Shown: positions 24,974 to 55,900 of the stretch, piece by piece | Numbering within the stretch: position 1 is the first letter of the stretch | Layout of the letters: the number at the start of each line of letters is the position of its first letter | Source of the DNA: Candidatus Poseidoniales archaeon | GTDB taxonomy: Archaea; Thermoplasmatota; Poseidoniia; MGIII; CG-Epi1 | DNA: 64,000 nt | Direction: 5' to 3' | Assembly: GCA_045567915.1 (NCBI GenBank) | Contig: JBJLCA010000036.1 | Coordinates: 3,410 to 67,409, forward strand | Notes under the pieces: generated by a model | Database searches by the model: none | The model's input: the letters and a program-made list of their open reading frames with translations, nothing else | What the model was told of the DNA's origin: nothing | Translations under genes and position numbers: made by a program

Positions 24974-25049
24974 AACATTCTTAATTTCAAGGAGATTTAA
25001 TAGTTACTGTATACTAAAATCGTATAAACTGCCCAAATATAGACCCAAT

Positions 25050-31977: not shown

Positions 31978-34900
31978 ATGTCTCGTAAAATAACTGCTTT
32001 ATTGCTAGCCATGCTGATGTTACCCTTTTCAGCAATGAACACATTAGCTGATGAAAATGATCCCGATTTATCAATAAATGGTATAAGTTTTAGCGAAGAT
32101 TCGCCTACTGGTGGAGATGATATTACTATTACTGCTGAAATTGCTAATGATGGTGGAACAAGTGGACTAATTAGTGTGACTACAAACGTTAGTTTTTATT
32201 CTGATTCTGACTTTATTGGTAAACAAACGATAACTATTCCTGGTGGAAATACTGCTGATGCTGAAATGGACTGGACGGCTGTCGGAGGCACTCATACCAT
32301 TAAAGTAATCGTAGACGAAGAAGAGCAAATTACAGAATCTGATGAGGACAATAATCAAGATACTGAAAGTATTACTGTTTCTTACCCTCCTATCTTACTT
32401 TTAGATGATGATAATAGTGGAAACAATGGAGGTTCTAGAACTGAAACTGACCAATATTACGCCAACGCACTAGACAATTTGACTAATCCTATTGCTTATG
32501 ATATTATTAGAGTAAATAGTAGTGCAGATGGCCCTGGAATTGATGTCTTATCTGAATATCAAATGATTATTTGGGTATGTGGAACTGATTACCAAAGTGG
32601 AGATACAGATGTGACTTTTACGGACAATGACAAAACAAATGTTGCCGAATATTTAGAAGGTGGAGGTGCTATGTGGGTAATAGGCATGGATATTCTGTAT
32701 GATTTTGATACTTCAGACGGAGATCGTAGTAGTGGGGATTTTGAATATGATTACCTGGGCGTAAGTTATGCTGATAATGATAGGGCGACTCCTGCCGTAG
32801 TTTATGGAGTAGATGATGACCCTATTTCTGATGGTATAGAATACAATGCTGATGCAATAAGTTCAGATTTTGCTGATGACGTAAACCCTAGAAGCGGATT
32901 TGAAAAAGTACTGAGCTCAAATGGAGACTATAACATTTCAACCATAAGGACTGAGGATGAATTCAAATTAGTATTCATGACTATCGATTTTAGTTCAATT
33001 ACAAGTAGTGATGATAGAGACGAATTTATGGAAAATGTCGTTGAATATTTAGTTGAGCAATTAGAAAATGATGTAAGTTTAAGTAGATTTAATAATCCAA
33101 AGGATGAGGAAACTGTTGAACCTAATGTAGAAAATATAGTAAATGTTACAGTAAGGAATCGTGGAACTGAAGATCAAGATAGTATCCAAGTCTCGTTAGA
33201 AATTACTTGCCTTAATAACTCATACACATTTACAGACTCTGAGACTATATCATTAGATGCAGGTACTGGAACATATGTCGAATTTGAATGGGACACTCCT
33301 GATGATGAAGACTATGTTTACGAACTAAAAAGTAAAGCTATAATATCTGATGATGAAAAAGAAGAGAATAATGAAAAAATAATCAAAGTCAATACATATG
33401 TCACATATGATTTAGAAGTGAAAGATGCGCGTGCTACTCCAATGATTGCTGAAAAGGAAGAAGAAAGAGAAATGAGTGTAATTGTCACTAATAGTGGGGA
33501 TGTTACTATGAACTCAGAAATAAGCGGTAAAATTTATGACGGCGCTGGTAATGTAATTGATAATTTAGGCAATCAAGATGTTGAAGAACTTGCTCCAGAT
33601 GAAAGTTTGACTCTTACATGGGAGTGGGAAACTGATGACTACGGAACTTTTTGGTTTGAAGCTAAAGTTATTGACGAGGATGATGAAGTCCCTGAAAATG
33701 ACATAATTGATGCAATGATGAGAAGTGTAGATGTGGAATTTACTGATGATATGGAAGATGGAGTCAATGGTTGGACTAATTACAAATCATTGAGCAACCC
33801 CTGGCATCTAATTGATACTGATGAAGATAGTAATCGTGAAGCATCTAGTCCAACTCACGCCATGTGGGTTGGAGATGGGTCGAAAGGTGATGGTGAATAT
33901 GACAATAACTGGGATTTTTCAGTTTACACAAGCGAAGAAATTGAATTAGGTCAAACAAATCCGCAAATGTCAGTAGATGTTTGGTATAGTACTGAATTTA
34001 GTTGGGACGGTGGAAATGTACAAATCACTACTGATGATGGAGAAACTTGGGAAGTAATCAATCCAGACGGTGGATATCCTGACGATGCCGTTGTTGGGCT
34101 AGATAATGAACCTGGCTATACTGGAACCTCTGGTGAGGGTGAAAGTGCAGACTGGGAAACTGCAACGTTTAGTCTTGCCAATTATACTAATGATAATGTG
34201 AGATTTAAATTTAGATTTGGAACTGACTCAAGTGTAGAAGCCTATGAAGGCTGGTATATTGATAACATCGAAGTTAGCAGTGGAACTGAAACTCACTTTG
34301 AAGACGATTTTGAAGACGGAGATGGTGAATGGATGGCTGATATTGTTGAAAGTGAATGGAATTATTACAGTAATAAATCATATTCAGGCGATTATTCCTG
34401 GTACTTAGGTAATCCAAGTACTGAAACATATAGTGCATCACTAAATGATTCTTTAGAATCTCCTACTTTTGACATAGGAGAAGGATCTGAAAAGTATGTA
34501 TCTGCAATGGTTTGGTTTGCTATTGATGGTCCAAGTGATTTAGTTAATTTGGAAATCAATCAATCTGGAGAATGGGAGACATTGGAAATCTTCCCTGAAA
34601 ATGATGGAGACTATTCAAGTGAATATGATGGTGCCGATGAAAATGGATGGTTATACTTTGAAAGTGATGTAAGTGAATATGAGGGTGATGTTTCATTTAG
34701 ACTTAGATTTGAATCTAACACATTTACCCAACTTGAAGGGTTGTATGTAGACAATTTTGCAGTTTATAGTCTTCCGCCTATACCAAATGACGTCGGTACT
34801 AAGGAGCTAGATTCACCTGCTACTGCTAAACCTGGAAGAGCCGTAACATTTACTTCTGAAATTTACAATTTTGGAACAAATGATCAAGAAGACTTTGATA

Positions 34901-37900
34901 TTAGAGGTACCGTGACAAGAGATGACGGAACTGAAGTCTATAATGAAACTCAGACTATTGACTCATTAGAATCAAAAACTAATTCCACATTAGAATGGAC
35001 TTGGGAAGGAGGCCCTGAGGGAACTTATACGATAAGAGTTGAGACGCTTTTATCTGGAGATGAACGTGCTGGTAACAATCCAAAAGAAGAAAATATAGAT
35101 ATTGCTGAAAGTGGATATAATGTCGCACTAGCTGTACAAGAACAGGCAAAAGATGTATTATCTGGTGAATCTGTAGCTTACAATTTTACAGCTACAAATA
35201 CTGGAGAAAATAGTGGTTACTATGACGTAACTGTGGACTCTGAACAAGAGGACGATTGGAAAATTATTTCACATGTAAGCTCTATTTACCTAACTGCAGG
35301 ATCAAGTCAGAATTTTACAGTAATAGTTATTGCACCTACTCTAGAGCCAAGCGGCAATGAACATGCATTTACTGTAACTGTAACAAGTAGAGATGATCCT
35401 GAAACTGAAGATAGCAGTGATATTTCTGCAACTCCATTTTATCATTCTCAAGAAGGTGGCGATAAAGTACTCTTAATTGATGCTAATTTTGGTAAAAATA
35501 ATGGATATAATAATTATTACAATGTAGATAAGATAGATAATCGTTTAAAACTTGCATTACAACAATATTTCACAGACGGTGAAAGTCGTGGCTACGATGT
35601 TTACACTATGCCTTACGATAGCGAACTTGGAAATTTTGGTGAATTAGGGCCTTATCCTACTTTAGACCTAATGAGTGGTTATGATGTCGTAATATGGACT
35701 CAAGGAGACCATAATCAAAGAAATATTACTAGTTGGGAAGAATGTATTAGTGATTATCTAGATGGGGGAGGTAGTCTTTGGATAATGGGTCAGCAATTTT
35801 TGAGTGCCTTAAATGGAAGTGACGGGCCTAGAGAGTCTGGCGATTTTGAATACGACTATTTCATGATAGAATACGTAAGAAATAGTGCTGGAACTCCAGA
35901 TCCACTAATAGGTGTAGATGATGATGAAATATTTGGCGATGCTGAATATGACATGGGTGACACTAGCATATATTATTCAGATTATGCTGACTGGATAAAG
36001 CCTAGAGATGAAGCAATAGGTGCTTTCTACACTGATCGAAGTAATTGGTGGCATATAGTAGACACAGTTAGTGATCCAAATAGAAAAGCAAACAGCCCAA
36101 CCCACTCAATGTGGATAGGTGATGAATCTAAAGGCGATGGCGAATATAGTAGTGGATGGGATTATTCGATATACACTTCTGAAGCTTATACACTAGGCAA
36201 TGGCGCACAACTGTCATTCCAACACTACTACGATACTGAGAGTGAAAGCTATGCCTATGATGGAGGTAATGTCCAACTTTCTACTGATGATGGGGAAACC
36301 TGGGAAGTAATCGAACCTAACGGAGGATACCCTGGGCAATCTGTCAGTGGATTAGATGGTGAACCCGGATACTATGGACAATCTGGCGGATGGGTGCAGG
36401 CTACTTTCGATCTTTCCAACTTTTCCGGCGAGGAAATTAAACTAAAATGGAGATTTGGTGCTGATGGAGTCATTGACGCATACGAAGGTTGGTATTTTGA
36501 TGACGTTGAACTAACCTCCAATGGGGGAACTACAAGCCATCTTTCTGATGATATGGAAAGTGGAATGGATAACTGGAATGATGCTGCTCAAGTTTTCAAT
36601 ATGTCATTACACTATGAAGGCGACTACAGACTAATTGTATCTCCTTTCACTTTTGGGAAAGTTAATACATCCAACGATCGTGAAGATATGGTAGGAAGAG
36701 CTCTCGATTGGTTAAGGGCGTCCGCAGCTGCTGATGATGTTGGAGTAAAAGTACTCAAATTAGAAAGTGACACAAAAGAAAACTCAACTATTCTCTTTTC
36801 AAGCATAATTAAGAATTATGGATCTGATACTCAAGCTGCGATAGATGTCAAGGCTACTATTTTGAATTCTGAAGGAAATGAAATATGGACCGATAATCAA
36901 CAGATATCAGGACCATTAGAATCTGGGGAAGAAGAAACATTAGACTGGGAATGGGAAAGTAATAATCCTGGCGAATACACTATCGTTGTAGAAACTACAA
37001 AAGAAGATGAAAATCATAGAAATAATGATAAGGATATTAATTTAGATATTGAAATGATACATATACCTGAGATTTCAACTTTTAATGAAGATAAAGAAGG
37101 GGAACCTGGAGCAAAATTAGAATTTAATATTGTTCTCAAAAATAAAGCTTCTGGAACAGACACATTCTATCTCGACATGACTGGAACTGCAGAAGAATGG
37201 GGTTCCATGACAAATCAAATGGAAATGAAGAGTAATGAAAGTAAGGATGTTGAACTTCAAATTACAATCCCTGATGATGCTGAATATGATTTATATGATT
37301 TAACTATTATTCTTAGTGCAGGTGATGTTACTGAAACTTTAGAATTAACTATAGATGTAACTGATGATCCAACGAACTATGAAGTAGAAATATCAGTAAG
37401 TCCGACAAATGCTGATTCTGTAGCAGGTCAAGAAGTAGAATTTAGTGTAACTATATTTAACAAAGGTGATGAATCTGACACATTTGACTTAGAAGTATTA
37501 GGCGATGAAAAATCATGGGTTGATTTTGAAGAAAATGGAATTTCTATTGGATCTGATGGAGAAGCTACTGTTAATGGAATAATAAATATCCCTGATGATC
37601 AGGACGATGGAAATGTATACATTGAGATAGTAGCTACATCAAGAGGAGATGAGACTGCACAAGACGATAAAACTATTAGGGTCTCTGTCGAAGAACTAGA
37701 AGCTGGTCTAACTCTAAGAAGAGAAGGATCTGGATTAAGAACTATAGCGCCTGGTGAAAATGACATTATTGAATTTATTGCATTAAGTGATGGTAATGGA
37801 AAACAAACCATAGAAGTAATGGCTGAAAGTGAAGCTGGAAATTGGGTCATTTTGAATCCTTCTACATTTGATTTAGATATTGAAGAATCTAAGACTTTCA

Positions 37901-38580
37901 CTGCAACTGTAAATGTTCCATTAGGTACTTCCGATGCAACCTATCGTCTAGAGATTCTGGTTTTTGATGATAATGGTAATGAGTTAGCAAAATCTATATC
38001 TAATATTGTCGTACAAACTCCAATTGAAGAAATACAAGATGTTTCACTTTGCTTTGCAGATTTAAGTAATCTATGCATAGGTTCAGCTAACTTTGAAATA
38101 ACTATTGAATCTGCAAAAATACAAACTGCTTCTGCTGGATTTATTATAGAGAATAAAGGAACCGTGGATGTAGATATCGCTCTCGAATTAATAATGCCTG
38201 ACGGATCTAAAGATACTGATCTATACTTTGATGAAAATAGTAAAGAGTGGAGAGTCGCTATTTCTCCATCAGATACTAAATTATATCCTCTAAAAGTTAA
38301 TGCTGGAGAAACGCTAGATTGGGGTGCCTTAGCTGTTATTGCAAGGGAAGTTTTACCTGGAACATATACTTATACTTTGAATATTTTGTCTGCAACTGAA
38401 GCATCAAGTGGAGAATATGTATTTGATGTATTAGACCAAATTACGCTAACCGTTACTGTGGAAGGTGAAGTCGTTTCTGAGGAAAATAATTCTGAAGCCG
38501 AAGACTCTTTACTTCCTGGTCCTTCATTTATGTCAATTGTTGCATTATTAGCATTAATAGTTTACAGAAGAAAACACTAA
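31978..38580 (+). CDS. Giant (2,200 aa) acidic surface protein: many CARDB-like Ig domains, duplicated alpha/beta-like module, three jelly-roll modules (two with Asp-box), PGF-CTERM-like tail
   Basis: Signal peptide 'MSRKITALLLAMLMLPFSAMNTLA'. CARDB pattern 'DLSINGISFSEDSPTGGDDITITAEIANDGG...HTIKVIVDEEEQITESDEDNN'. Asp-boxes 'TTDDGETW' and 'STDDGETW'. Tail 'SLLPGPSFMSIVALLALIVYRRKH'. Confidence 0.85.
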   Translation: MSRKITALLLAMLMLPFSAMNTLADENDPDLSINGISFSEDSPTGGDDITITAEIANDGGTSGLISVTTNVSFYSDSDFIGKQTITIPGGNTADAEMDWTAVGGTHTIKVIVDEEEQITESDEDNNQDTESITVSYPPILLLDDDNSGNNGGSRTETDQYYANALDNLTNPIAYDIIRVNSSADGPGIDVLSEYQMIIWVCGTDYQSGDTDVTFTDNDKTNVAEYLEGGGAMWVIGMDILYDFDTSDGDRSSGDFEYDYLGVSYADNDRATPAVVYGVDDDPISDGIEYNADAISSDFADDVNPRSGFEKVLSSNGDYNISTIRTEDEFKLVFMTIDFSSITSSDDRDEFMENVVEYLVEQLENDVSLSRFNNPKDEETVEPNVENIVNVTVRNRGTEDQDSIQVSLEITCLNNSYTFTDSETISLDAGTGTYVEFEWDTPDDEDYVYELKSKAIISDDEKEENNEKIIKVNTYVTYDLEVKDARATPMIAEKEEEREMSVIVTNSGDVTMNSEISGKIYDGAGNVIDNLGNQDVEELAPDESLTLTWEWETDDYGTFWFEAKVIDEDDEVPENDIIDAMMRSVDVEFTDDMEDGVNGWTNYKSLSNPWHLIDTDEDSNREASSPTHAMWVGDGSKGDGEYDNNWDFSVYTSEEIELGQTNPQMSVDVWYSTEFSWDGGNVQITTDDGETWEVINPDGGYPDDAVVGLDNEPGYTGTSGEGESADWETATFSLANYTNDNVRFKFRFGTDSSVEAYEGWYIDNIEVSSGTETHFEDDFEDGDGEWMADIVESEWNYYSNKSYSGDYSWYLGNPSTETYSASLNDSLESPTFDIGEGSEKYVSAMVWFAIDGPSDLVNLEINQSGEWETLEIFPENDGDYSSEYDGADENGWLYFESDVSEYEGDVSFRLRFESNTFTQLEGLYVDNFAVYSLPPIPNDVGTKELDSPATAKPGRAVTFTSEIYNFGTNDQEDFDIRGTVTRDDGTEVYNETQTIDSLESKTNSTLEWTWEGGPEGTYTIRVETLLSGDERAGNNPKEENIDIAESGYNVALAVQEQAKDVLSGESVAYNFTATNTGENSGYYDVTVDSEQEDDWKIISHVSSIYLTAGSSQNFTVIVIAPTLEPSGNEHAFTVTVTSRDDPETEDSSDISATPFYHSQEGGDKVLLIDANFGKNNGYNNYYNVDKIDNRLKLALQQYFTDGESRGYDVYTMPYDSELGNFGELGPYPTLDLMSGYDVVIWTQGDHNQRNITSWEECISDYLDGGGSLWIMGQQFLSALNGSDGPRESGDFEYDYFMIEYVRNSAGTPDPLIGVDDDEIFGDAEYDMGDTSIYYSDYADWIKPRDEAIGAFYTDRSNWWHIVDTVSDPNRKANSPTHSMWIGDESKGDGEYSSGWDYSIYTSEAYTLGNGAQLSFQHYYDTESESYAYDGGNVQLSTDDGETWEVIEPNGGYPGQSVSGLDGEPGYYGQSGGWVQATFDLSNFSGEEIKLKWRFGADGVIDAYEGWYFDDVELTSNGGTTSHLSDDMESGMDNWNDAAQVFNMSLHYEGDYRLIVSPFTFGKVNTSNDREDMVGRALDWLRASAAADDVGVKVLKLESDTKENSTILFSSIIKNYGSDTQAAIDVKATILNSEGNEIWTDNQQISGPLESGEEETLDWEWESNNPGEYTIVVETTKEDENHRNNDKDINLDIEMIHIPEISTFNEDKEGEPGAKLEFNIVLKNKASGTDTFYLDMTGTAEEWGSMTNQMEMKSNESKDVELQITIPDDAEYDLYDLTIILSAGDVTETLELTIDVTDDPTNYEVEISVSPTNADSVAGQEVEFSVTIFNKGDESDTFDLEVLGDEKSWVDFEENGISIGSDGEATVNGIINIPDDQDDGNVYIEIVATSRGDETAQDDKTIRVSVEELEAGLTLRREGSGLRTIAPGENDIIEFIALSDGNGKQTIEVMAESEAGNWVILNPSTFDLDIEESKTFTATVNVPLGTSDATYRLEILVFDDNGNELAKSISNIVVQTPIEEIQDVSLCFADLSNLCIGSANFEITIESAKIQTASAGFIIENKGTVDVDIALELIMPDGSKDTDLYFDENSKEWRVAISPSDTKLYPLKVNAGETLDWGALAVIAREVLPGTYTYTLNILSATEASSGEYVFDVLDQITLTVTVEGEVVSEENNSEAEDSLLPGPSFMSIVALLALIVYRRKH

Positions 38581-39368
38581 TCAAAATAATTATTTGAGAT
38601 TAAAAAAGGTAAAAGCAAAAAATAAACTAGATATAAAATAAAAGCAAAAGGCCACAGTGCTTCCCATATTGCTTGTTCCAAATATCTAAGCACTATTGTT
38701 AATATTAAAATAATCAATCCGAATAGAATAGGATATTTGAATTGCTTTCTAGCTTTAGCATAGGGTATCGTTGATGCCGTCAATAACGATACTAAACCTA
38801 TAGACAATGGAATCAATAAATTACTATAATCATTAATTTGTGAATACTTAATTGAAATTACTACTATGAACATAGTGAGGCCAGGAGAAGGTAAACCAGA
38901 AAAGTATTCATTATTGCCTTGATCGCCTATTGTAAAATTAGCTAATCGGATAATGCTTAAAATTGCAATTAGTAATGCTGAAGAAATTGCAACAATATTA
39001 TCTACATTGTACCTGAAATCTAACTCAAAATTATCATCAAAAATGTCTATTGCTGGACCTTTATCTAAATTATAATACAATGAATAAACCAAAATTGATG
39101 GAGCAATTCCGAAACATATTGAATCTGAAATTGAATCAAGATATTTTCCGTAGTGATGTTTGGTGCCAAACTTTCTAGCTAAAGCGCCATCCATTCCATC
39201 AATAATTGCACAAAACGGCAATATCAACATAGCTACGATGTAACTTTTCTCATTACCATCAATCATGTATGTTATTGCTAAAAAACCTAAACAAGCACTC
39301 AGTAAAGTTGCCATATCTGCATAAGAAATCAAGGTTAATGGCCTAAACATTTGTTTTAAATTAATCAT
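38577..39368 (-). CDS. pssA: CDP-alcohol phosphatidyltransferase, PssA-type (archaetidylserine synthase-like)
   Basis: 'DGMDGALARKFGTKHHYGKYLDSISDSICFG' = D-G-x2-A-R-x8-G-x3-D-x3-D. Polytopic. Starts 3 nt after the upstream fusion gene. 4-nt convergent stop overlap with the giant gene. Head-group specificity is inferred from context only. Confidence 0.7.
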   Translation of the reverse strand: MINLKQMFRPLTLISYADMATLLSACLGFLAITYMIDGNEKSYIVAMLILPFCAIIDGMDGALARKFGTKHHYGKYLDSISDSICFGIAPSILVYSLYYNLDKGPAIDIFDDNFELDFRYNVDNIVAISSALLIAILSIIRLANFTIGDQGNNEYFSGLPSPGLTMFIVVISIKYSQINDYSNLLIPLSIGLVSLLTASTIPYAKARKQFKYPILFGLIILILTIVLRYLEQAIWEALWPFAFILYLVYFLLLPFLISNNYFD

Positions 39369-39371
39369 AAT

Positions 39372-41030
39372 TCACTCATCACTTTGTGTAGCTTGTAACT
39401 TTGACAATAGACGCTTAGGTGCCTCAAAAAGTTTTTCAGTCACAGATAATGAGGACATTGGAGTATACTCTGCTAATTGTTGTCCTGCTAATACCTTATC
39501 ACCTTTCTTAATTAAAAGATTAATGCCTGCAGACTCAAAGGATAAATCTACACGTGAACCAAAATGTATTAATCCTATTCTTTCACCCTTGGTAACTTCT
39601 ATACCTGGTTTAACGTAACTAACAATTCGCCTAACTAAAACTCCTGCTATCTGAATTACTTTCATTACACCAATTGAGGTTTCTATCTTAGTCATCAGAC
39701 GCTCGTTCTTGTCTGAATCCTTGTAAAAAGCTGGAAGGTAACCTCCAGATTTATGTTTAATAGACAAAACTTTCCCATCAAAAGGAGACCTGTTTACATG
39801 AACATTATGGACATTCATAAATATGGATAAGCGGACCATTCCACTCTTTATTTCTGCCCTTTGTACAAGACCATCAGCAGGACTAACAATTCCAGATTCA
39901 ATCTTTCTTTCAGGATCTCGGTAAAAATACAACAAAAAGAAAGAAACTAATAACAAGATTATTGATAAGGAATACATGCTTTCAAGAGGAAGATTTGAAT
40001 CAAAACCTTGCTCTTTAACTGAGGTTGAAAAGAAACCAAATGGAAATAGAACTAAACCAGCAACTAATAGATATGCCACTTGAGAAGGCATACCTTTAGC
40101 AAAAGGAAGTCCTCGTAAACCATCAGGAGCTTTTCTGAGAGGTAAATCAATTACTCCCAATATGGAATCTTGCATTTCTGGTAAAAAATGAAATACTGCA
40201 ATTGCTAAAAATACTAAAGCAATTAAACTTCCAACCTTCCCTAAAACTCCATGAGCGTAAAAGAAAGTCTCCTCTCCCCAAACGTGCTCATATGTTAACC
40301 AAATTACAACTGCATTTCTAATTAAATTTAAGAGATAAATTGCAGGGACTGTAGCAAGAAATGCATAAAATCTTCTATCTGCCGGAGCCTTAGTACAAAC
40401 GACTCCGCCTACAAATATTATCATACTTTGCAAGGCCGTACATGCTAGTACAATCGTTAGGGATATAGAATCGGGATTACGCCATTCATCACCTTCAATA
40501 GCAATTTGAACTTCTTCATGCTCTGAAGCTGGCCTGTAATATTTTGAGCCGTCACCATAGTCTAAATTACCTAAAGACGTTGGAATATCAAATGAATTCA
40601 AAATCCATATTGATTGTTCTGCAACTATTTGAATCAACCAACCTGAAAGAAGAGGAACCCTTTCTACAAAAAAGTAGATTCCGCCTGCAACAACAGTCAT
40701 TGCAGCTAACCATCGAAGAGGTTCATACTTGGCATTCCAGCGTATGCTAAGATATTCATGAATTGCTAAATAACCAAAAAATGGCATTGCTAACGCGCAA
40801 AAAAGACCATTTGCAGGATCATTAATTAAAATATAATGTTCTACTTGTATCCACCAAAAAAAACCAAGAAGTAACCAACCTATTATGTTTAGGTTATGGC
40901 CTATCTTAACTGGAAATTTCTTGCCGAAAAATATATGGGCTTTACTTGAGAAGAAATAACCTAATGATAAAATAATTAAAGAACTGATGACGAGAATTTC
41001 TGCAAGTATTGATAAATCACTAGACATCAA
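39372..41030 (-). CDS. Fusion protein: archaeosortase (ArtA)-like polytopic domain + archaeal-type phosphatidylserine decarboxylase proenzyme
   Basis: Uninterrupted 552 codons. N-terminal ~300 aa with about 8 TM and Cys197 'TIVLACTALQSM', Arg238 'LLNLIRNAVV', His260 'FFYAHGVLGKVG' (exosortase/archaeosortase-type spacing). Residues ~370-500 read 'RDPER...SPADGLV...NVHNVHVNRSPFDGKV...IAGVLVRRIV...GERIGLIHFGSRVDL' (Asd/PSD-related, Gly-Ser self-cleavage site). Confidence 0.75.
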   Translation of the reverse strand: MMSSDLSILAEILVISSLIILSLGYFFSSKAHIFFGKKFPVKIGHNLNIIGWLLLGFFWWIQVEHYILINDPANGLFCALAMPFFGYLAIHEYLSIRWNAKYEPLRWLAAMTVVAGGIYFFVERVPLLSGWLIQIVAEQSIWILNSFDIPTSLGNLDYGDGSKYYRPASEHEEVQIAIEGDEWRNPDSISLTIVLACTALQSMIIFVGGVVCTKAPADRRFYAFLATVPAIYLLNLIRNAVVIWLTYEHVWGEETFFYAHGVLGKVGSLIALVFLAIAVFHFLPEMQDSILGVIDLPLRKAPDGLRGLPFAKGMPSQVAYLLVAGLVLFPFGFFSTSVKEQGFDSNLPLESMYSLSIILLLVSFFLLYFYRDPERKIESGIVSPADGLVQRAEIKSGMVRLSIFMNVHNVHVNRSPFDGKVLSIKHKSGGYLPAFYKDSDKNERLMTKIETSIGVMKVIQIAGVLVRRIVSYVKPGIEVTKGERIGLIHFGSRVDLSFESAGINLLIKKGDKVLAGQQLAEYTPMSSLSVTEKLFEAPKRLLSKLQATQSDE

Positions 41031-41058: not shown

Positions 41059-41793
41059 CTAAGGTCTTCTCTCTAACCATTTCTGGGCCTCTGAATATGA
41101 GTCTAAACTACCAATATCATACCAATTTCCTTTAAACGATACTGAATCAACTGAGTTACGTTTAACATTCCAAGCCAAAAAATTACCCATAGCGTCTCTG
41201 TCTCCACCTTCACTAATGTATGAGAAAAAATTAGCAATACCTGATTCAGATAACAACCAATAAGCTGTTGCTGCTAATGTGGAGGGAGGAGTGGAAGGTT
41301 TTTCGACGAAATCAATAATTTTATTATCTTCTAAGTCAGCTATACCATATAATTTTGCTAATTCTACATTTTCAACATCAAACAGGCCAATAACATCTGA
41401 TTTAGATTCACTATAAACTGTAACCATTTTTGTTAAATCAAAATCCGACAAATTATCTCCACCTGCAATAAAAACTGGACCTTTTAAATTCTTATTTTTG
41501 AATAAAAGATTTAAAGCACCTAATGCTCCTAATTTTTGATCTTCACTATCGCTCTCTTCAACAAATAATTCTACATTTTTAAAGCCTGTATTAGAATCTA
41601 AATAATCTTGAAATTGTGGTGCAAAAAAACTATTAACTGAAACTATAATTCTATCTAAATCTAAATTAATTAAAGAGTCTATAACATAATCAAGCATAGG
41701 CCTCCCTGCCAGATTAAGTAATTGTTTAGGCTTATTCTTAGTTAATGGCCACATTCTTTTGGCAAAGCCGCCTGCCAGAATTATTCCGTCCAT
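41059..41793 (-). CDS. Sugar-phosphate nucleotidyltransferase (NTP_transferase family)
   Basis: 'MDGIILAGGFAKRMWPLTKNKPKQLLNLAGRPMLDYVI' (G-x-G-x-R-L signature region), 'FIAGGDNL'. The start overlaps the upstream stop by 1 nt (TAATG). Confidence 0.75.
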   Translation of the reverse strand: MDGIILAGGFAKRMWPLTKNKPKQLLNLAGRPMLDYVIDSLINLDLDRIIVSVNSFFAPQFQDYLDSNTGFKNVELFVEESDSEDQKLGALGALNLLFKNKNLKGPVFIAGGDNLSDFDLTKMVTVYSESKSDVIGLFDVENVELAKLYGIADLEDNKIIDFVEKPSTPPSTLAATAYWLLSESGIANFFSYISEGGDRDAMGNFLAWNVKRNSVDSVSFKGNWYDIGSLDSYSEAQKWLERRP

Positions 41794-42683
41794 TAAAGAT
41801 CTATTTTGCCGCCAGACATTAACTGCTGTAATGCATCATCTGCAGCTGAATCTAATTTCTTTGGATTGTATAGCTCATCCTTTATGTTTTTTCTGTGATC
41901 TTTGACAACTTGCCACCTTGCTTGTCTCTCTTCAGTAGCTGTTTTCCTGTGTAATTTCAAAGCTTCAAGCATTTCCATGGCTTTAGAGTGTTGATTATCT
42001 GCTTTCTTACGAACGTTAACGAATTCTTTATGCTTCTTATCTGCTTCTGTAGACAAATGCGAAGCTTCCTTCATCAAATTGCTTACTTTTTTATAAATTT
42101 TTTTGTTAAGCTTAGCCAATACTATGACCTCACTATGTTGCTCATTAGCCTTAGAAAACTCAGAATCAATTTCAGTATCTAACTCAGAAACTTCAAGATT
42201 TAAATGTTCTTGAGTTGCAAGGTCACTTTCTTGATCGCTCAAACTCCGCCTTAGTATTCCTAACTTTTCCATTACTTCCCTTTCTTTTGAGATTGGCATC
42301 TCTGTTGTTTCTCTTCTTCTTTCCAAATTCAAAATTTCAGAATTGAGGGCCTGAACTGTATCTGTGAGAGACTTTCCACCTTTCTTATTTCCTCTCTTTT
42401 GCTGTTTAATTGAAATCAATTGTTTAGCTTTTTCCTGTGCTGTATTTCTTACCTTTTGATGTGCTGCTTTAGCTGAAGTATTAGACTTCATTTCATCTCT
42501 ATGCTTCATAATTTCTTCCATAATTTTACCTCTTTGATCATGGAGAGCATTTCGCTCATCACGAATACTTCTAGCTTCATCATTAAAATTATTACGTTTG
42601 ACTACACAACTTTGGAACCGTTCCTCTGCCAATTTAATCTCGGATTTTGGCTTTTTTTGTTGTCTAGATTTCTTTTGACTCAT
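41793..42683 (-). CDS. Lys/Glu-rich coiled-coil protein (archaeal COG1340-like)
   Basis: About 296 aa of continuous heptad-like K/E/R/Q sequence, with no TM. Start placed at 'MSQKKSRQQKK' (42683). The listed ORF starts at 42722. Confidence 0.5.
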   Translation of the reverse strand: MSQKKSRQQKKPKSEIKLAEERFQSCVVKRNNFNDEARSIRDERNALHDQRGKIMEEIMKHRDEMKSNTSAKAAHQKVRNTAQEKAKQLISIKQQKRGNKKGGKSLTDTVQALNSEILNLERRRETTEMPISKEREVMEKLGILRRSLSDQESDLATQEHLNLEVSELDTEIDSEFSKANEQHSEVIVLAKLNKKIYKKVSNLMKEASHLSTEADKKHKEFVNVRKKADNQHSKAMEMLEALKLHRKTATEERQARWQVVKDHRKNIKDELYNPKKLDSAADDALQQLMSGGKIDL

Positions 42684-42746
42684 AACTAAATACGCCTCTA
42701 GGAAGTTGTAAACCTCGAGCATATAATATAAAGCTGACTATTCAAA

Positions 42747-43709: not shown

Positions 43710-43768
43710 AAGCTATCTGCTCATTGGACAAGGGACTAAAAGAGCCTCTCCCATGTGATTTTACTTCC

Positions 43769-44398
43769 ATGCTTAGTAAAACTTTGAAAAATGCTGCTGG
43801 AAAGCTGTTTGATCCTCTTGCCAAAGTACTTGGCAAAATAGGGATTAAGCCAAATCACATCACGATTGCCGGTGTTGTTTTGACTATTTATGCAGCATGG
43901 TTGCTGTATGGTCAGAATATTTATTATGCATTTATAGTAGGAATGATTGCTTCGCTATTTGATGGGGCCGATGGTTTAGTAGCAAGAGCAACAAAGACAA
44001 CTTCGATAAGGGGAGGTTACCTTGATGCAACGTTAGATAGATATGCTGACTGTATTGCTTTTAGTGCATTGATACTTTGCGATTGGATAAACCCCTTGCC
44101 TATTGAATCTTTAGATTTAATTTCTGGACAAATGTGGGCAATGGCTGCCATGATTGGGGCTTTCCAAACATCTTACTGTCGCGCTGCTGCTGAAAGATTG
44201 GGAGTATCTCAAGAAGGAATTGGCTTAATTGAAAGGCCTGAAAGATGGTTTATTTTAGGAATGGGATTGTTAATTGGACAGCTCATGAATGACGTAGAAA
44301 CTATCATTACCATTGTCGTTGCTGCTTTAGCCGTTTTGGGAAATTTGACTGCTTTTCAAAGAATAAATCACTTTTGGAATGAGGCTAAAGATGAATAA
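43769..44398 (+). CDS. CDP-alcohol phosphatidyltransferase (second copy; archaetidylglycerophosphate/inositol-phosphate synthase-like)
   Basis: 'DGADGLVARATKTTSIRGGYLDATLDRYADCIAF' = D-G-x2-A-R...G-x3-D-x3-D. Start placed at Met 43769 (MLSKTLKN...), because the listed start 43724 leaves only 14 nt to divergent purC. Confidence 0.75.
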   Translation: MLSKTLKNAAGKLFDPLAKVLGKIGIKPNHITIAGVVLTIYAAWLLYGQNIYYAFIVGMIASLFDGADGLVARATKTTSIRGGYLDATLDRYADCIAFSALILCDWINPLPIESLDLISGQMWAMAAMIGAFQTSYCRAAAERLGVSQEGIGLIERPERWFILGMGLLIGQLMNDVETIITIVVAALAVLGNLTAFQRINHFWNEAKDE

Positions 44399-44873
44399 TG
44401 GCTTTCTAAAAGAAGCATATCTTTCTTTTTTCTTTCTAGGAAAAGCTCCTATTGCGCCTGGAACCTTTGGAACATTAGGAGGCGTAGGGGTAGCATTCTT
44501 TGCAGTTAGTTTCTTTGGAAATAATGCAGGATATCTATTGCTGGCTCTAATACCTGTTATGTATTATTTTGGACTAATTCTAGCACCCTGGGCTGAGAAG
44601 AAATATGGAAATGACCCTGGAATATATGTACTGGATGAAGTTATTGGATATTTGGTAATTATTGCTTCTTTGAGTTTACTACAATTTCCAATGGATGAGC
44701 ATAATTGGATATTATCTTTTACTTTATTTCGTATTTTTGATGTGTTAAAATTATGGCCTGCTAAAAACTTGGAGAGGCTTCATGGAGGTCATGGCATTTT
44801 ACTAGACGATATAGCTGCAGGATTCCAAACCTTGATTGTGATTCTTTTTATGGAAGTCTATGGAGCCGTTTAA
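44379..44873 (+). CDS. pgpA: Phosphatidylglycerophosphatase A family protein
   Basis: 'FFLGKAPIAPGTFGTLGGV', 'VLDEVIGY', 'FRIFDVLKLWPA', 'LLDDIAAG'. Overlaps the upstream transferase (alternative ATG at 44391). Confidence 0.8.
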   Translation: MRLKMNNGFLKEAYLSFFFLGKAPIAPGTFGTLGGVGVAFFAVSFFGNNAGYLLLALIPVMYYFGLILAPWAEKKYGNDPGIYVLDEVIGYLVIIASLSLLQFPMDEHNWILSFTLFRIFDVLKLWPAKNLERLHGGHGILLDDIAAGFQTLIVILFMEVYGAV

Positions 44874-48930: not shown

Positions 48931-49824
48931 CTAATTAGTATTACAATCTGAGCAAACGCCCTTAGAATCCAAATTGTTACTGCATTCTAAGCAAGTTTGC
49001 TTCTCAAAGAATGTGCCTAACCAAGCCGATTGTAATTCCGGTTCATCTGCACTTTTAAGCATTTCAAGTTCATAATCGCCTTTCTTGCTATTTTCATATA
49101 ATTTAGTAATATAATCCATATCAAAATTAATAGATTCTTTTTCAACGATACTTTTCTTAGGAAACAAAGGGGAAAGAAAAACTCCTGCTATGAATGAAGC
49201 CATATGTGTTCCGTGACCTATACCGTCCTGTGTATTCATTCCAACATACAATGTTTCCATTGCCACAAATACAATTGTAGCTAAAATAACTGGGACCCTA
49301 TGAAGAAAAATTGGACCTAGTAGCATAGGTATCTCATCTCTAGGGTATAGAAGAGCAAAACCACCCATTATCCCAAAAACTGCACCCGAGGCACCTATGT
49401 TTAGCGTGTTTAGTCCCTCACTATTAAAAACTGAAACTGATCCTGTAATTAGAGAGCCCAAGATTCCTGAAATAAAGTAAATTAAGAAGAATGAACGTGA
49501 ACCTATTCTTTCCTCAAATGGTACACCCAATAAAATTAGAACCAACATATTCATCAAAATATGCATTGATCCACCGTGCATAAACATGGCCGATACTATC
49601 GAAACAAGTCTAAATTGGGGTTCTGCAAGATATTGTGATTTGAAGCCTAGATCAATAATGGCTTCGATTGCATATTTAGGATACAGCAAGTAGATTATCC
49701 ACCAACTCGCAAATATAGAAAAGTTAATGAATACTAGTGATTGCGAAACCATAAATTGATTTCGTAAACAGTAGTAAGATACCAACAATCCTACTATTAG
49801 CAAGAAAAATGTACCCACTGCCAT
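48931..49824 (-). CDS. Rhomboid-family intramembrane serine protease with C-terminal Cys4 zinc-ribbon-like tail
   Basis: 'MHGGSMHILMNM', catalytic 'GASGAVFGIMGG', 'HGTHMASFIAG'. Tail 'CLECSNNLDSKGVCSDCN'. Confidence 0.8.
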   Translation of the reverse strand: MAVGTFFLLIVGLLVSYYCLRNQFMVSQSLVFINFSIFASWWIIYLLYPKYAIEAIIDLGFKSQYLAEPQFRLVSIVSAMFMHGGSMHILMNMLVLILLGVPFEERIGSRSFFLIYFISGILGSLITGSVSVFNSEGLNTLNIGASGAVFGIMGGFALLYPRDEIPMLLGPIFLHRVPVILATIVFVAMETLYVGMNTQDGIGHGTHMASFIAGVFLSPLFPKKSIVEKESINFDMDYITKLYENSKKGDYELEMLKSADEPELQSAWLGTFFEKQTCLECSNNLDSKGVCSDCNTN

Positions 49825-49920: not shown

Positions 49921-52900
49921 TTATTCTTCTTCTCTTCTAAGAGAAGCACCGGCTGCTGCAATTAATGCTGCTACAGACATTCCAACTATTCCAAGTGCGA
50001 AAGATGGAGTAGATGATTTATCTTTAACAACTGCAATCTGTCCAAATGCATCATTGTCGTCTTTTTGGTTCAAGTATTCATCTTGCTTCTTGTGGCCATT
50101 ATCGACATCAATTTGCTCTGGTTCTGGGTTGATCATTGCATACAGTTCAACATTCGTGAAATCTTGATTTGTTTCACCTGGTATGAATGCTTCTTCCCAA
50201 ACTGCGGTTATTGGATACCATGTCTGATATATTCCTTGAGATTCAAGAACTGGTTTTGGTGCCATAACTGGTTCTGTAGTTGATGCTATTCTAGTCATAC
50301 GCTTGACTCCGTCTGGCGTATTGTATGCATCTCCTGTAGAATCAATTGCGTAGACCACCATTAAGACATCTGAAGCGTAGTTTCCTTCGTTCCATGCCTC
50401 CACAGTTATTGCTAATGAATCTCCTTCAAGAACTCCTGCTCTATCGTAGGACATTTCACCTAGTACAAATTGTGATGGTTTAATGAATAAGGTTGCCGAG
50501 GTTGGCTCTCTCATATCTTCATCACTACCTGTGTCCACTGGGTTCATTTTCACATCAAACTTGCGGTTTCCTGCAGGTTCTGCTTTCTCTGCATCATAGT
50601 TTGGAGCTAAGAATCTTACTGTAATAGTAGCTTCATCATCTGGAGACATTTCTATTCCATATGTGTAAGTTCCATTACCGTCAGATACTGAAGTTAAATC
50701 GTTGTATTCTACTCCATTCACTAAAACTTCTACAGTTATTGTGAATGCAGCTCCCATGTACTCTTTACCTTGTGCGACCAAAGTAGGTGTGAACTGGAAT
50801 TCATTATCTTCTGTACCTATATTCTTAGCGAAATAATCCATTTCTACTGCTAAACTTGGGAATATCTCATAAGTTAGCTTGTTTGGATTATCCTTAGCAA
50901 AGAAGAAACCAGTATCCTGCGTTCTTACAACTTGGACGTTACCAATTTCAGCTGTACCTTCAACACCACGTGCTCTGAAGACAAATGCATAAGAATTATC
51001 TTCTTCCGGACTGTATGCTAAACTGTTGTAACCCAATTTATTAGAATCTAAGTAGATGTAATATGGGTTCCAGTCGCTATTTCCAGTTAAAGAATCTCCG
51101 ACTTCTGAATGATCTGAACCATCCATTATCTTGAATCCATTAGCACCCCAAAGAGCTAGTGTTCCTGCATCATCTATGTCTGAACCTTTCTTTTGTGCAT
51201 AAACTGATATTGCACTATCGTCAGAAATATCGTACTTAGCCCAGAAGAATAAGTATGATTCTGCTGACCAGACATTGATGTAGTTTGTTCTTGCTTGTTC
51301 ATCTGCGCTGTTGTCAGATGTTACTGTAATAGTACCTTCCATCATTGGATGATATTTACAGTTGTAAGTGAACACACCTATCTCATTGAAAGTTTGCTGA
51401 TAAGATGCACCTGGTGCGATATCAAATGAATCGAACTGTGATGCTTTATCTGTTACTGTGTGAGTCATATCGTCTGAATTAGTCCATGTAACTGTTGTTC
51501 CTAGTTGAACTGTAGGCGATTCTGGCACAAATCCTGTACCTTGACCTGCAATATCTATTGCTAATGTTCCTGTTGCGACGCCTGTTTCATCCCAAGCGAC
51601 TCCAAGTGCACCAGTACCAACATCTGTTGGAACTCCTGTGGCTGCACCCCAATTAGCACCGCCAGCTAGCAATGGTGATCCCATGTCTGCACCAAGACCT
51701 ACTAACAGCATATGATTTGCATCATTATTTGCTGAGAATAAATCAGATAACATATCTCCATTAGAATCTGCAACCATTACACCTGCTGTGTACATACCTG
51801 CTGAAGACATACCTGGGAAATCGAAGCTTATTGTTGGAGTTGATTCTCCTGCAAATGTATCTCCATTCTCATCATAGTATGCCATATTCAAGGTACCTAG
51901 TGAACTGGACTTAGACCATAGCTCATTGCCACTCATATCGTTAACATATGCGTATGCAAAAGCTTCTGTCATAGCTCCACCTGCACCAAGATTACCTTTA
52001 CCTTGATTTACAAAGGAAGTAGTGATCGTACTTGACTCACCCACTTCTAATGTGTAAGGTACCGATGAGCTGGTTTGCTTTAAATCAAAACCAAGACCGT
52101 AGATACCTACGTTGTCAATACTCCAAGTACTTCCCCAGTTAGGGAAAGCTCCACCGTATCTGAATCTTAGTCTTACATTATCGAAACCTTCACCTGTGTA
52201 ATCATTCAAACTACATTGTGACTCTACCATAGAGTTACCTGCTGAAGAAGATGCAACGAATGCTTGCTGACCTCTCAACGGATTACCGTAGTATGCATAG
52301 TTGTAAACTGCTCCGCCATATCCTTGACCAGATGTAACTGGTAGTGATGACCAAGTGCTTCCACCGTTTGTACTGATTTCTACTCTACCACCATCATAGT
52401 AATAGTTGTAATTACCGATACTTGCATAGAACGAGAATACGTGATCAAACACTAATTTCGCTGAAGTAGCTTGTGAAAGATCTATTACTGGTGACATTAG
52501 GCTTACATCATCACCATTGTATGATGTACCATATGCATCAGGCCCAACCCACCAAACTGGTGAATCTGGGGAATTTGATGTTGCATCTGTTCTCCATTGG
52601 TGTCCATCCTTAGGACCGCCATCTTTAGCTGATGTCCAATCATCTTCATAATACATTCTATTCAAATCATCATTCTTGTTAGAAGTTGCTTCTGCATCTG
52701 CGGTCGTTCCAGCTACGGTAAACATAGTTTCACGTGTTGCTGCTGCAGTATTATCTCCTGCGAAATCATCTCCGGCTGACGGATCTGATCCTATCCATGC
52801 AGTGAATTCAATTTTGTATTCACCAGGAACTTGGAAGTGATAATCTTTTGAATATTCAAACTTTTCACCACTTACAAATGGTCCTGCTGCTCCAGAAATT

Positions 52901-55900
52901 GCTACAATTTCTTCAAAGGCCACAGATTCCATACCCGTTCCTGTAAATGTTAATGAATCTACATACCAGTGTTCTCCATCACCTGGATACTGATATCGAT
53001 ACATTCCTACCTGGAACTTGAGTTTTACTTCTGATTCGCCAACATAATCTGCCATGTCGAATACAGTTTCAATGTACTTATCTTGGTTGTCTGAAGCTGT
53101 TCCGCTTACACCAGTACAGTCACCACAGTGTACGAATCCTGCTTGGTTGTACAATGGATTTGCATAGAATGCATAATTGTACATTGTTCCTGGATATCCA
53201 CCTTCAGGTGTAAACAACTCCCAGTTGTCTCCATCATCTGTGGAAATCAAGACTTGTCCACCATTATATGCTGTTCCCATGCCAGAGTAGTAATCGAAAT
53301 TATACCTGTGTTTCAAAGTTAACTTCAAGTCACTTTCTGTTTCGGAAAGATCCAAAGTTGGTGTAACTGTTTCTGTAGAACCACCGCTGTAATACATCTC
53401 AAACTCTCCATCCTCTGGACCGAATGAGGTTGTATCTCCATCAGCGACTATAGCCATACCTGCTGGACTTCCCCAAGAGGTACAAGTGCCATATGTAGTG
53501 TTACATACTTTGTCAGTTCCACTCCATCCTGCTGTCTGAGCGTCTGATGTTGTAGTGTAACCTTCTAAGTCATCACTAACATCGTAAGTTGCAAGACCCA
53601 TAGGCCCTAATTGCAATCTTACTTTAGCCGCTCCAGCTGTTTGATTGTTAATTCCTGCATTAATTACTGTAGTAGACAATGCAATAGTTTCATCAATTCC
53701 AATTGGATCTGGAAGCTCTAGAGTGCTTACTCCTACATTATCATTGTATACAAGACCAGTTACTGCAAAGTCATCAAATCTCAAGAATGAATTATAGAAT
53801 CCATATCCTGTTGGTATAGATGACCAGCCTGCAACCCATCTGAACATAATATCATCTTGTCCAGTATATGCGTCAAGGTTGAATTTCACATCAATATATT
53901 TATTTGAATCTGGAGAACTGGTGAATCCAGTACTAGATCCGTAGTAAGTATATGCTGGTTGACCACGTAGTGGATTTCCATAATATGCGTAATTATAGAT
54001 GTTATTCGGATAACCACCAATAGGTGTTATCATAGTCCAAGTACTACCGCCATCTTCTGACACTTGTGCTTGGTATCCATCATATGTATAATATCCATAA
54101 TATGCTATTTTCATTTGAAGTTCAGCTTCAACAGGTAGACCTAGATCTAATGCTGGCGTGGAAACATAGGTGTCTGAAGGAACTGGATTACTGTTTCTGT
54201 AACCACTGTCCATCGAACTTGCACCACTTGATGCCGATATTGAACGGACATCCCAATCGCTAGTTCCGTATTGAACTTTACCACTAGTCCAACCTTGATC
54301 TTCACCTTCGAAATCATCTGAGAAGATAACATATTTTACTTCTCTGAAAACGACTACGCGTTGATTTGTTTTATCTTCATCATTAGCATTACCTGGAACA
54401 TTAATAGATATTCCTACAGTATCGCCAACTTTCAATCCTTCTGCGCTAGGCTTGAACTTGTTTTCTGTAAAGAAACTTACTGACTCTGAGCCTTTGAAAT
54501 CAATGGAAGCTATAGTTTCAGTTTCTGTAGCAAAAGTTTCATCAGCTTCTAAAACTGTAGTAGTTATGTCATCCACTCTGAAGAATGCATTGTAGTAAGA
54601 CATTGAATATGTATTATATCCAACAACGAAACGAACACGCACATCCTCATAGCCCGTGTATTCATCTAAAGTTGCTGTGGCTTGTTGCCAATCTTCTGTA
54701 TTAGAGTAAGATGAATATCTGCCACCTGTGTCATAATAAGTCCATGCATCTCTTGATGTATCTAACGGATTACCCCATGTTGTGTAAGTAGTTCCATAAT
54801 ATTTCTTACCAGATAGTTTATCGTTATCTACATAATCCCAATTATTTCCACCATCGGTTGAAACTTCCATGTACGCTCCTTCATATCTGAAGTAGAAATT
54901 GTAAGATATCTTGAAAGACATTTTCATTCCTACTGCCTCACTAAGATCCATTGCTGGTGAGCTTAATGCTGCAAGATAAGTAGGTGCAGGACCAATTGTT
55001 TGTGTAGCTGTACCTGAACTACTTCCAGAAGTGAAGTAGTAAACTGCATCTTGATAATTAAGGAATGAATAATAATTAGCTGCATAATTACTAGACACAA
55101 AAATGTCTTCTGAATCAGTTACTGCAAGTGAACCTTTGTATGTTCCTTGTGTAAAGGAACCCCAAAGGGTAGTTATGCTAGTTAATGAACTTGTAGGCAT
55201 TTTCTTTACACCACCATAATATGATGAGTAATAATATCCCATAGTGTATACGTAATCATTGTGAGCTTCTATACCAATTCCATATCTTGCTCCAGTATAA
55301 ACTTGAGTGTAACATGTGGTACTTGCACAGTAGTCACCAGAAGTATCTCTATCATATCCTCTTATTCGGCCATAGTAATCTCTATAGACGACATAAAGAT
55401 CTCCTGTGTTTTCATCTATGTCAAGATCTTGTGAATAGGTGTATGCTGAAACTCCATTTCCGTAACTTAGTGATTTACCATTTGATGCCAATCCATCATT
55501 AGTTGAAAAACCTACAATCTTACGGTATGATGCAGAATTGGTTGTTTGAAGAACAAACAATTCATCAGCATCTTCATAGATAGATATAGCAGTACCATAT
55601 CTTGCTGCAGTGGTACAACTTCCTGTCAAGGCCAAAGTAGTTCTATCCCATTTACATACTTTAGTTACGTATGAATAAGTACTAGATGATCTTGCCAAGG
55701 TGTAATAGTAATCTGCATCTGATGTTATATCAAGAACATTTCGTAGATTAGTCAAGTCAGGCCCAATAATAGTGCTGACTGAATTAGAGTCTGAAGTGTC
55801 TATTTTCTTAATAGAGTTTGATCCTTTATCAGCTACGAGTATGTCTTCACCATCGTAGTGAACTCTTTGCTGATCACTGAATAATCCGCTGAAAGTTGTT

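Follow-up and report, generated by a model that had tools for sequence, protein, structure and literature searches.

We analysed a 64,000-nucleotide stretch of DNA (the window) from a Candidatus Poseidoniales archaeon of the Marine Group III lineage CG-Epi1 (GenBank assembly GCA_045567915.1, contig JBJLCA010000036.1, positions 3,410 to 67,409), in which a single reverse-strand gene, artA::pssD, encodes an archaeosortase A (ArtA) and a phosphatidylserine decarboxylase (PSD) as one polypeptide. The explanation we consider probable is that this gene specifies a genuine bifunctional membrane protein, in which a complete archaeosortase A and a complete archaetidyl/phosphatidylserine decarboxylase (PssD/Asd) are joined by a short cytoplasmic linker, and that the fusion arose through loss of the artA stop codon in an ancestral artA-pssD-pssA operon. 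The gene, its parts and the adjoining pssA are listed below.

39372..41027, reverse strand: artA::pssD fusion gene, 551 codons plus stop (open frame, homologues of 551 residues, both family models above cutoff)
40128..41027, reverse strand: archaeosortase A domain, residues 1-300, polytopic (TIGR04125 and TIGR04178 above cutoff)
40440-40442, 40317-40319 and 40251-40253, reverse strand: codons of Cys196, Arg237 and His259, respectively, verified in the sequence
40089..40127, reverse strand: fusion seam, residues ~301-313, basic, a predicted cytoplasmic linker (set against the termini of separate artA and pssD frames; loop charges)
39375..40088, reverse strand: phosphatidyl/archaetidylserine decarboxylase part, residues 314-551 (PF02666, NF003685, Foldseek)
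39555..39560, reverse strand: Gly490-Ser491 (motif FGSR), predicted self-cleavage site generating the pyruvoyl group, codons verified
38577..39368, reverse strand: pssA-like CDP-alcohol phosphatidyltransferase, 263 residues, probable archaetidylserine synthase (PF01066, exact motif)

The open reading frame (ORF) list of the window gives an uninterrupted reverse-strand frame of 552 codons at 39372..41030, as described in an earlier interpretation made from the letters alone (the sequence-only reading). Codon 1 is TTG (41030) and codon 2 is ATG (41027); because codon 2 is ATG and close homologues are 551 residues long, the likely start is the ATG at 41027, which yields a 551-residue protein. The motifs LACTALQS, NLIRN and YAHGVLG cited in the sequence-only reading are all present, but its residue numbers mixed two schemes that differ by one, an immaterial slip. 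The Cys, Arg and His within these motifs are residues 197, 238 and 260 in the 552-residue numbering and 196, 237 and 259 in the 551-residue numbering used here, the only one in which G490-S491 holds.

The call of an archaeosortase for the N-terminal half was confirmed by two curated NCBIfam models, both above their cutoffs: TIGR04125 (archaeosortase A, MEROPS C106) scored 142.3 bits against 75, with residues 45-294 spanning profile positions 23-260 of 271, and TIGR04178 (the exosortase/archaeosortase signature) scored 64.7 bits against 23 over residues 192-285. C196, R237 and H259 are invariant among fused homologues and aligned in stand-alone ArtAs. Cys196 and Arg237, which are 41 residues apart, align with the Cys and Arg of haloarchaeal, methanogen and Marine Group II ArtAs, and in a Salinarchaeum ArtA the position 40 residues past the Arg aligns with His259. 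In Haloferax ArtA, mutagenesis has identified Cys173, Arg214 and Arg253 as the critical residues, with Cys173 and Arg214 likewise 41 residues apart. The Cys/Arg/His triad of the sequence-only reading stands as three conserved residues, with a putative role for the His, but the set critical in Haloferax is Cys173/Arg214/Arg253 rather than Cys/Arg/His. No solved archaeosortase or exosortase structure was found in the PDB by sequence search or by Foldseek, which matched the PSD half only.

The C-terminal half was likewise correctly called as a PSD. It scored 133.3 bits against a cutoff of 22 for the Pfam PS decarboxylase family (PF02666) and 193.5 bits against 183 for the phosphatidylserine decarboxylase equivalog (NF003685, residues 352-519), and in an AlphaFold2 model of the fusion built from a 50-sequence alignment (pLDDT 87.5, pTM 0.82) the C-terminal beta domain matched the Escherichia coli PSD structures 7cny, 7cnx and 6l06 (Foldseek E ~1e-4, probability 1.0). 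This part of the protein consists of a two-helix membrane hairpin (residues 315-368), a beta-rich catalytic domain (370-521) and a C-terminal helix (529-548). G490-S491, D385 (in SPADG) and H410 (in VHVNR) were equated with the E. coli PSD triad by motif, without superposition; they are invariant in 7 of the 7 aligned fusions and at least 90% conserved in the 50-sequence alignment. Together with RDPxR and SPADG they are invariant in all fused lineages, and the catalytic-type residues are unchanged across fusions as divergent as 38% identity. The cutoff of NF038088 (the 'protein sorting system' archaetidylserine decarboxylase, anchor_synt_D) was not reached (172.2 bits against 240); judged by its sequence score, the half is akin to that subfamily, yet no member of it by the NCBI threshold. 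After the PSD alpha chain, residues 521-551 (39375..39467, reverse strand) form an extension containing the predicted helix 529-548, which the low-GC Marine Group III clade has but the homologue P0121 and the compact fusions described below lack.

The seam was defined against the ends of separate artA and pssD frames in six loci (L041, L045, L046, L048, L050 and L052). In these unfused relatives, a charged tail follows a conserved DLPxR at the end of ArtA, and PssD opens with an 'LARG'-like motif ahead of two membrane helices. The seam of the fusion falls after this conserved DLPxR of ArtA and before 'LRG...', where PssD begins. It is placed near residues 301-313 because the ArtA tail, shortened to about 10 residues, continues directly into 'LRGLPFAKGMP'. 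Met313, within the seam, is possibly a vestigial pssD start.

The fusion is not confined to this assembly. Of the 199 clusters obtained by searching 5.8 billion proteins, more than 100 are full-length proteins of 551-556 residues with both Pfam domains, from ENA, JGI, NCBI, Logan and Tara assemblies; the fused clusters are named at source either 'archaeosortase A' or 'phosphatidylserine decarboxylase'. A genome scan with one genome per GTDB species yielded 65 loci, whose open frames were translated and classified with hidden Markov models from the two halves. Around 35 Marine Group III-like loci, all species representatives, encode the two domains in a single frame, and in nearly all of them pssA is the next gene downstream. 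They are 53-96% identical to the window fusion, which is 96% identical to the CG-Epi1 lineage of Marine Group III, and they range in GC content from 34 to 66%. The exceptions among Marine Group III-like loci were those cut off at a contig end and one, L034, that probably has a frameshift. The titles of the records are submitter labels, and by these labels two fused loci belong to Thalassarchaeaceae, and two of the contigs (L016 and L018) come from single isolates rather than metagenome-assembled genomes (MAGs). A survey of Poseidoniales and Thermoplasmatota had been proposed in the sequence-only reading, a target that was wrong in part: the fusion belongs to relatives of Marine Group III and to a small number of other Thermoplasmatota. 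The 11 recovered loci labelled Poseidoniales or Poseidoniaceae (Marine Group II) carry a stand-alone artA, without pssD or pssA within 6 kb. Two archaeal artA contigs (L006 and L059) lie in bins labelled Neomarinimicrobiota and Salinimicrobium, probably through mis-binning.

In 11 other loci, including L045, artA, pssD and pssA occur as three ORFs in the same order (10 Thermoplasmatota and one Methanotrichaceae MAG). The parts are thus separate in 11 loci and fused both in the ~35 Marine Group III-like representatives and in three further, more divergent lineages, the pattern of a Rosetta-stone fusion. The proteins of those three lineages are of 444-447, 418 and 533 residues. The compact 444-447-residue fusion follows the genes for EF-1alpha and rpS10 and has no pssA nearby. 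In the 418-residue fusion (P0278, L071 1583..2839), pssA is adjacent, the two N-terminal membrane helices of the decarboxylase have been lost, and the ArtA C-terminus is joined directly to 'FFRDPER'; because its own membrane hairpin is deleted, this PSD domain depends on ArtA for membrane attachment.

We built a neighbour-joining tree for each domain. The Marine Group III fused clade had 100% bootstrap support in these trees, and its sister was the unfused L045, a relationship supported at 100% in the ArtA tree; in the PSD tree the wider grouping received 74%. The compact fusions formed a separate monophyletic clade (100%), and the 533-residue fusion paired with a stand-alone ArtA (100%). Since three further divergent lineages carry fusions of their own, the fusion probably arose more than once from an operon; at least three independent events are likely, the deep nodes of the trees being weak. 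What this analysis establishes is the identity of the two domains and of their conserved residues, that the fusion is maintained and recurs, and that it descends from an operon.

Several related gene arrangements were seen in the same searches. In two loci (L069 7689..9344 and L070 1393..3048) the compact artA::pssD abuts the genes for EF-1alpha and ribosomal protein S10 without a gap, and a clostripain-family (C11) peptidase is encoded 1.3 kb downstream. P0308, a 393-residue protein from a Logan assembly, joins a prolipoprotein diacylglyceryl transferase (Lgt, PF01790, residues 5-231) to a PS decarboxylase (residues 227-384), and is therefore a second, unrelated lipid-anchoring enzyme joined to a PSD. 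A different ArtA fusion is found in P0145 (592 residues) and P0219 (604 residues), where archaeosortase A has an N-terminal extension of about 300 residues with pentapeptide repeats.

The window pssA starts 3 nt after the fusion stop codon. That this gene encodes a CDP-alcohol phosphatidyltransferase, as the sequence-only reading had proposed, is supported by an exact D-G-x2-A-R-x8-G-x3-D-x3-D motif at residues 60-82 and by a PF01066 score of 51.3 bits against a cutoff of 22. None of its NCBIfam equivalog cutoffs is reached (NF038087, 94.5 against 240; TIGR00473, 87.8 against 107; NF038086, 75.1 against 200). We infer serine specificity because its best NCBIfam matches are, by a wide margin, serine-type models, and because the decarboxylase adjoins it. 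We rejected pssA as an inositol-type partner of the upstream nucleotidyltransferase gene (IPCT/DIPPS-like, with weak NF041135 matches): its serine-type score is 94.5 bits against ~23, and the inositol-phosphate-type enzyme is a separate gene at 43724..44398.

Membrane topology was derived from the helix boundaries of the AlphaFold2 model and from loop charges, not from coordinate geometry. The basic loops (residues 27-40, 97-101, 212-219, 282-314 and 369-375) were assigned to the cytoplasm and the acidic loops (61-79, 146-193, 248-253 and 333-347) to the outside. On this model, the helix of Cys196 would carry that residue at its outer end, and Arg237 and His259 would fall within the outer halves of the two helices that follow; the active site of Haloferax ArtA is also listed as extracellular, in agreement with this placement. 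The decarboxylase domain is predicted to be cytoplasmic, because five membrane helices separate Cys196 from it. An odd number of helices between the Cys and the decarboxylase recurs in the other fusions: there are five in the compact and 533-residue forms and three in the 418-residue form, because the decarboxylase hairpin is deleted from the last.

The topology, the identity of the lipid, the nucleophile and all enzymatic activity of the fusion system are inferred, and the scheme that we propose is as follows. PssA would make a serine lipid from a CDP-activated lipid at the cytoplasmic face of the membrane. The PssD domain would cleave itself at Gly490-Ser491 and then decarboxylate the serine lipid to an ethanolamine lipid at the same face; the self-cleavage would leave ArtA covalently attached to the PSD beta chain, with the 61-residue alpha chain held non-covalently. 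Once the ethanolamine lipid had got to the outer leaflet, Cys196 of the ArtA domain would cleave secreted proteins at a PGF-like signal (LLPGPSF, PGF or PSF, ahead of a membrane helix and a basic tail), and the lipid amine would resolve the acyl-enzyme, so that the protein would end amide-linked to the lipid. The fusion would set the ArtA:PssD stoichiometry at 1:1 and bring the lipid supply and the sortase together.

Several observations weigh against this scheme as a full account of the fusion. The two active sites are predicted to lie on opposite faces of the membrane, an arrangement in which fusion alone could not deliver the product to the sortase; since synthesis of the lipid would take place at the inner face and its use at the outer, the lipid would have to flip before any direct hand-off. 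Unlinked genes suffice in the Marine Group II loci recovered here and in the haloarchaea (PMC7157517). The fused decarboxylase may also supply bulk membrane lipid, if it is the only decarboxylase of the genome. By its sequence scores pssA falls below every equivalog cutoff, so that its serine substrate is putative, and none of the six candidate tails in the window, described below, attains the PGF-CTERM cutoff (best 21.2 bits against 24.5). Two claims of the sequence-only reading need to be revised. It took the fusion as evidence that archaetidylethanolamine is the direct acceptor, which is overstated: as a sequence feature, the fusion argues for functional or physical coupling of ArtA and PssD and is not proof of the direct acceptor. 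The predicted topology, with the Cys outside and the decarboxylase inside, conflicts with its further proposal of a lipid made in situ and passed on to the sortase active site. A speculative way to reconcile the two faces, which we think quite improbable, is that the ArtA helix bundle and the decarboxylase hairpin of the model form an intramolecular path that takes the freshly synthesised ethanolamine lipid out of the cytoplasmic leaflet to the sortase site in the outer leaflet. If this were true, the fusion would be a self-contained machine that synthesises, flips and attaches the lipid, with stand-alone ArtA and PssD assembling non-covalently into the same complex.

An alternative that we consider unlikely is neutral operon compaction, in which the stop codon between two adjacent membrane-protein genes was lost in small, packed genomes, with no consequence beyond co-expression, with no more to be learned about mechanism than from the operon itself, and with the PSD making mainly bulk ethanolamine lipid. 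The genes of the window are indeed tightly packed, with 3-nt gaps and 1-4-nt overlaps, and the join is topologically neutral, since separate ArtAs end and separate PssDs begin in charged cytoplasmic tails. The unlinked genes of the recovered Marine Group II loci and of haloarchaea, and the predicted position of the active sites on opposite faces, also fit this alternative. However, at least four lineages of divergent sequence carry fused forms, with unfused lineages interspersed among them, and the frame is intact in essentially all of the ~35 species representatives over deep divergence, which argues for selection for the fusion, or at least for none against it. Compaction also sits poorly with P0278, which has deleted the membrane hairpin of its decarboxylase and relies on ArtA for anchoring.

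It is still less probable, in our judgement, that the decarboxylase domain is mainly a structural or regulatory partner, activating ArtA by protein-protein contact rather than supplying the acceptor lipid. The authors of the Haloferax work left undecided whether lipid synthesis or interaction with ArtA is what matters (Fig. 5 legend, PMC7157517), and the pTM of 0.82 suggests a defined arrangement of the two domains in the model. Yet the decarboxylase motifs (Asp385, His410, Gly490-Ser491, RDPxR and SPADG) do not vary in any fused lineage, as expected only if catalysis is retained, and pssA co-occurs downstream. An assembly chimera, or a sequencing error that erased a stop codon or frameshift between two genes, can be dismissed with near certainty and was rejected, since the same frame, 551-556 residues long and with a conserved linker, recurs in more than 100 clusters and in dozens of independent assemblies and genomes; the one point in its favour is that the window probably stems from a metagenome assembly.

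We next consider the candidate substrates, of which the window holds six. These are large ORFs of secreted type with C-termini in which a short motif precedes a hydrophobic helix and a basic tail, and their domains include CARDB/MAM-like, cupredoxin, fasciclin, lectin and cyclophilin.

31978..38580, forward strand: 2,200-residue surface protein with CARDB and MAM-like domains (Pfam), convergent with pssA
7762..9678, reverse strand: 638-residue fasciclin/cupredoxin candidate, tail ...TPGF-hydrophobic-SRRL (PGF_CTERM 21.2 bits, cutoff 24.5)
11191..13503, reverse strand: 770-residue lectin-domain candidate, tail ...LPGF-hydrophobic-RKPRN (weak Heimdall-CTERM match only)
49921..57054, reverse strand: 2,377-residue candidate with a cupredoxin domain, tail ...TPSF-hydrophobic-SLRREEE (no sorting-domain model match)
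3986..6766, reverse strand: 926-residue cupredoxin protein, a weaker candidate, tail ...VPSIGF-hydrophobic-LRRRVH (no model match)
24966..25808, forward strand: 280-residue cyclophilin-type isomerase, a weaker candidate, tail ...IPNISF-hydrophobic-LLRRN (no model match)

The 2,200-residue gene ends in a 4-nt overlap with the 3' end of the cassette (31978..38580 against 38577..39368), as the sequence-only reading had noted, and this convergent pairing with pssA is kept in relatives. Its tail (38503-38577) consists of DSLLPGPSF, a hydrophobic stretch and YRRKH. Among orthologues in ~30 species representatives, the pattern [DE]SLLPGPSF-hydrophobic-YRR[KR] is near-invariant while the preceding residues vary, and in the high-GC clade the motif reads LPAPSL; from this conservation, the tail is likely to be a sorting signal. 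The sequence-only reading named several such clients of the sortase. Six tripartite tails, the giant neighbour's among them, do exist, but a literal PGF is found in only two (7762..9678 and 11191..13503), and all six proteins stay candidates because no tail attains the PGF-CTERM cutoff. Directly downstream of the 2,377-residue candidate is an ORF for a rhomboid-family protease (48931..49824, reverse strand), with weak similarity to rhombosortase (29 bits against 84).

Four further genes near the cassette form part of its genomic context.

41059..41793, reverse strand: sugar-phosphate nucleotidyltransferase-family gene (PF00483, 131.9 bits), upstream of the fusion across a 28-nt gap
41793..42722, reverse strand: DUF7121 coiled-coil protein, upstream of the fusion on the same strand
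43724..44398, forward strand: second CDP-alcohol transferase, best match archaetidylinositol-phosphate synthase (146.9 bits, cutoff 180)
44379..44873, forward strand: PgpA-like phosphatase, overlapping the transferase gene at 43724..44398

The nucleotidyltransferase gene matches an AglF-like model at 85 bits, far under the cutoff of 400, and any role for it in the cassette is putative. Its synteny with the DUF7121 gene upstream of the fusion is kept in relatives whose fusions are 68% identical, and a link of this pair to surface-protein glycosylation is possible. The second transferase and the phosphatase, 3 kb from the cassette, are also kept in relatives at 68% identity, forming a small neighbourhood of head-group biosynthesis genes.

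The three enzyme families of the window cassette are those of Haloferax volcanii, where ArtA-dependent cleavage and lipidation depend on both PssA and PssD and the three proteins co-localise (Abdul-Halim et al. 2020, mBio, PMC7157517). The same study proposed that the amine of archaetidylethanolamine resolves the ArtA Cys thioester, and a 2022 review named as an unanswered question whether a functional complex is formed by ArtA with the synthase and the decarboxylase (PMC9385802). NCBIfam already has 'protein sorting system' models for both lipid enzymes. Thus the link between ArtA, PssA and PssD and the archaetidylethanolamine-acceptor model are already published; the fusion corroborates them and is no new system. 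Unlike the three unlinked genes and separate proteins of Haloferax, the window has ArtA and PssD in one polypeptide with pssA adjacent, its sorting motif is mostly a variant of PGF (LLPGPSF, PSF), and its PSD half falls under the cutoff of the decarboxylase model built around the Haloferax-type group (172 against 240).

In Methanosarcina, artA, pssD and pssA are juxtaposed (Abdul-Halim et al. 2020; Haft et al. 2012, cited in PMC7157517), in the order that we found in the Methanotrichaceae MAG and ten Thermoplasmatota loci. They are separate ORFs there, whereas in the window lineage the artA stop has gone and the ArtA tail runs for about 10 residues before the PssD N-terminus. A natural ArtA-PssD fusion, which the sequence-only reading did not know to have been described, is likewise undescribed in the searchable literature, although a mention in Haft et al. 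2012 or Abdul Halim et al. 2018 is possible. The rhombosortase/GlyGly-CTERM system (Gadwal et al., as quoted in bioRxiv 10.1101/2023.06.07.544157 and PMC7157517) is bacterial, and its protease, a serine protease of rhomboid fold, is non-homologous; these two papers make no mention of a rhombosortase fused to a lipid-synthesis enzyme.

The E. coli PSD (7cny, 7cnx and 6l06) shares its fold with residues ~370-520 of the fusion, together with the Gly-Ser motif and the conserved Asp and His. It is a stand-alone, peripheral protein, whereas the window PSD, fused to a sortase of seven helices, has a membrane hairpin of two. Sortase A, with lipid II, and the glycosylphosphatidylinositol (GPI) transamidase both form a Cys acyl-enzyme that is resolved by the amine of a lipid-linked acceptor, which in GPI is that of ethanolamine phosphate. 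Their folds are unrelated to that of archaeosortase, and their acceptors are made by separate enzymes.

Lipid attachment by archaeosortase is still a model, in which ArtA may be a one-step transpeptidase that uses archaetidylethanolamine. A fusion that is kept over deep divergence and is probably recurrent adds an independent line of comparative evidence, drawn from another archaeal phylum, for ArtA and PssD working next to each other. The predicted opposite-face topology sharpens the question of how the acceptor lipid would reach the sortase, and the fusion offers a single-chain target, with a confident predicted structure, for cryo-electron microscopy and in vitro reconstitution. For Marine Group III itself, the giant surface proteins are probably lipid-anchored by this route.

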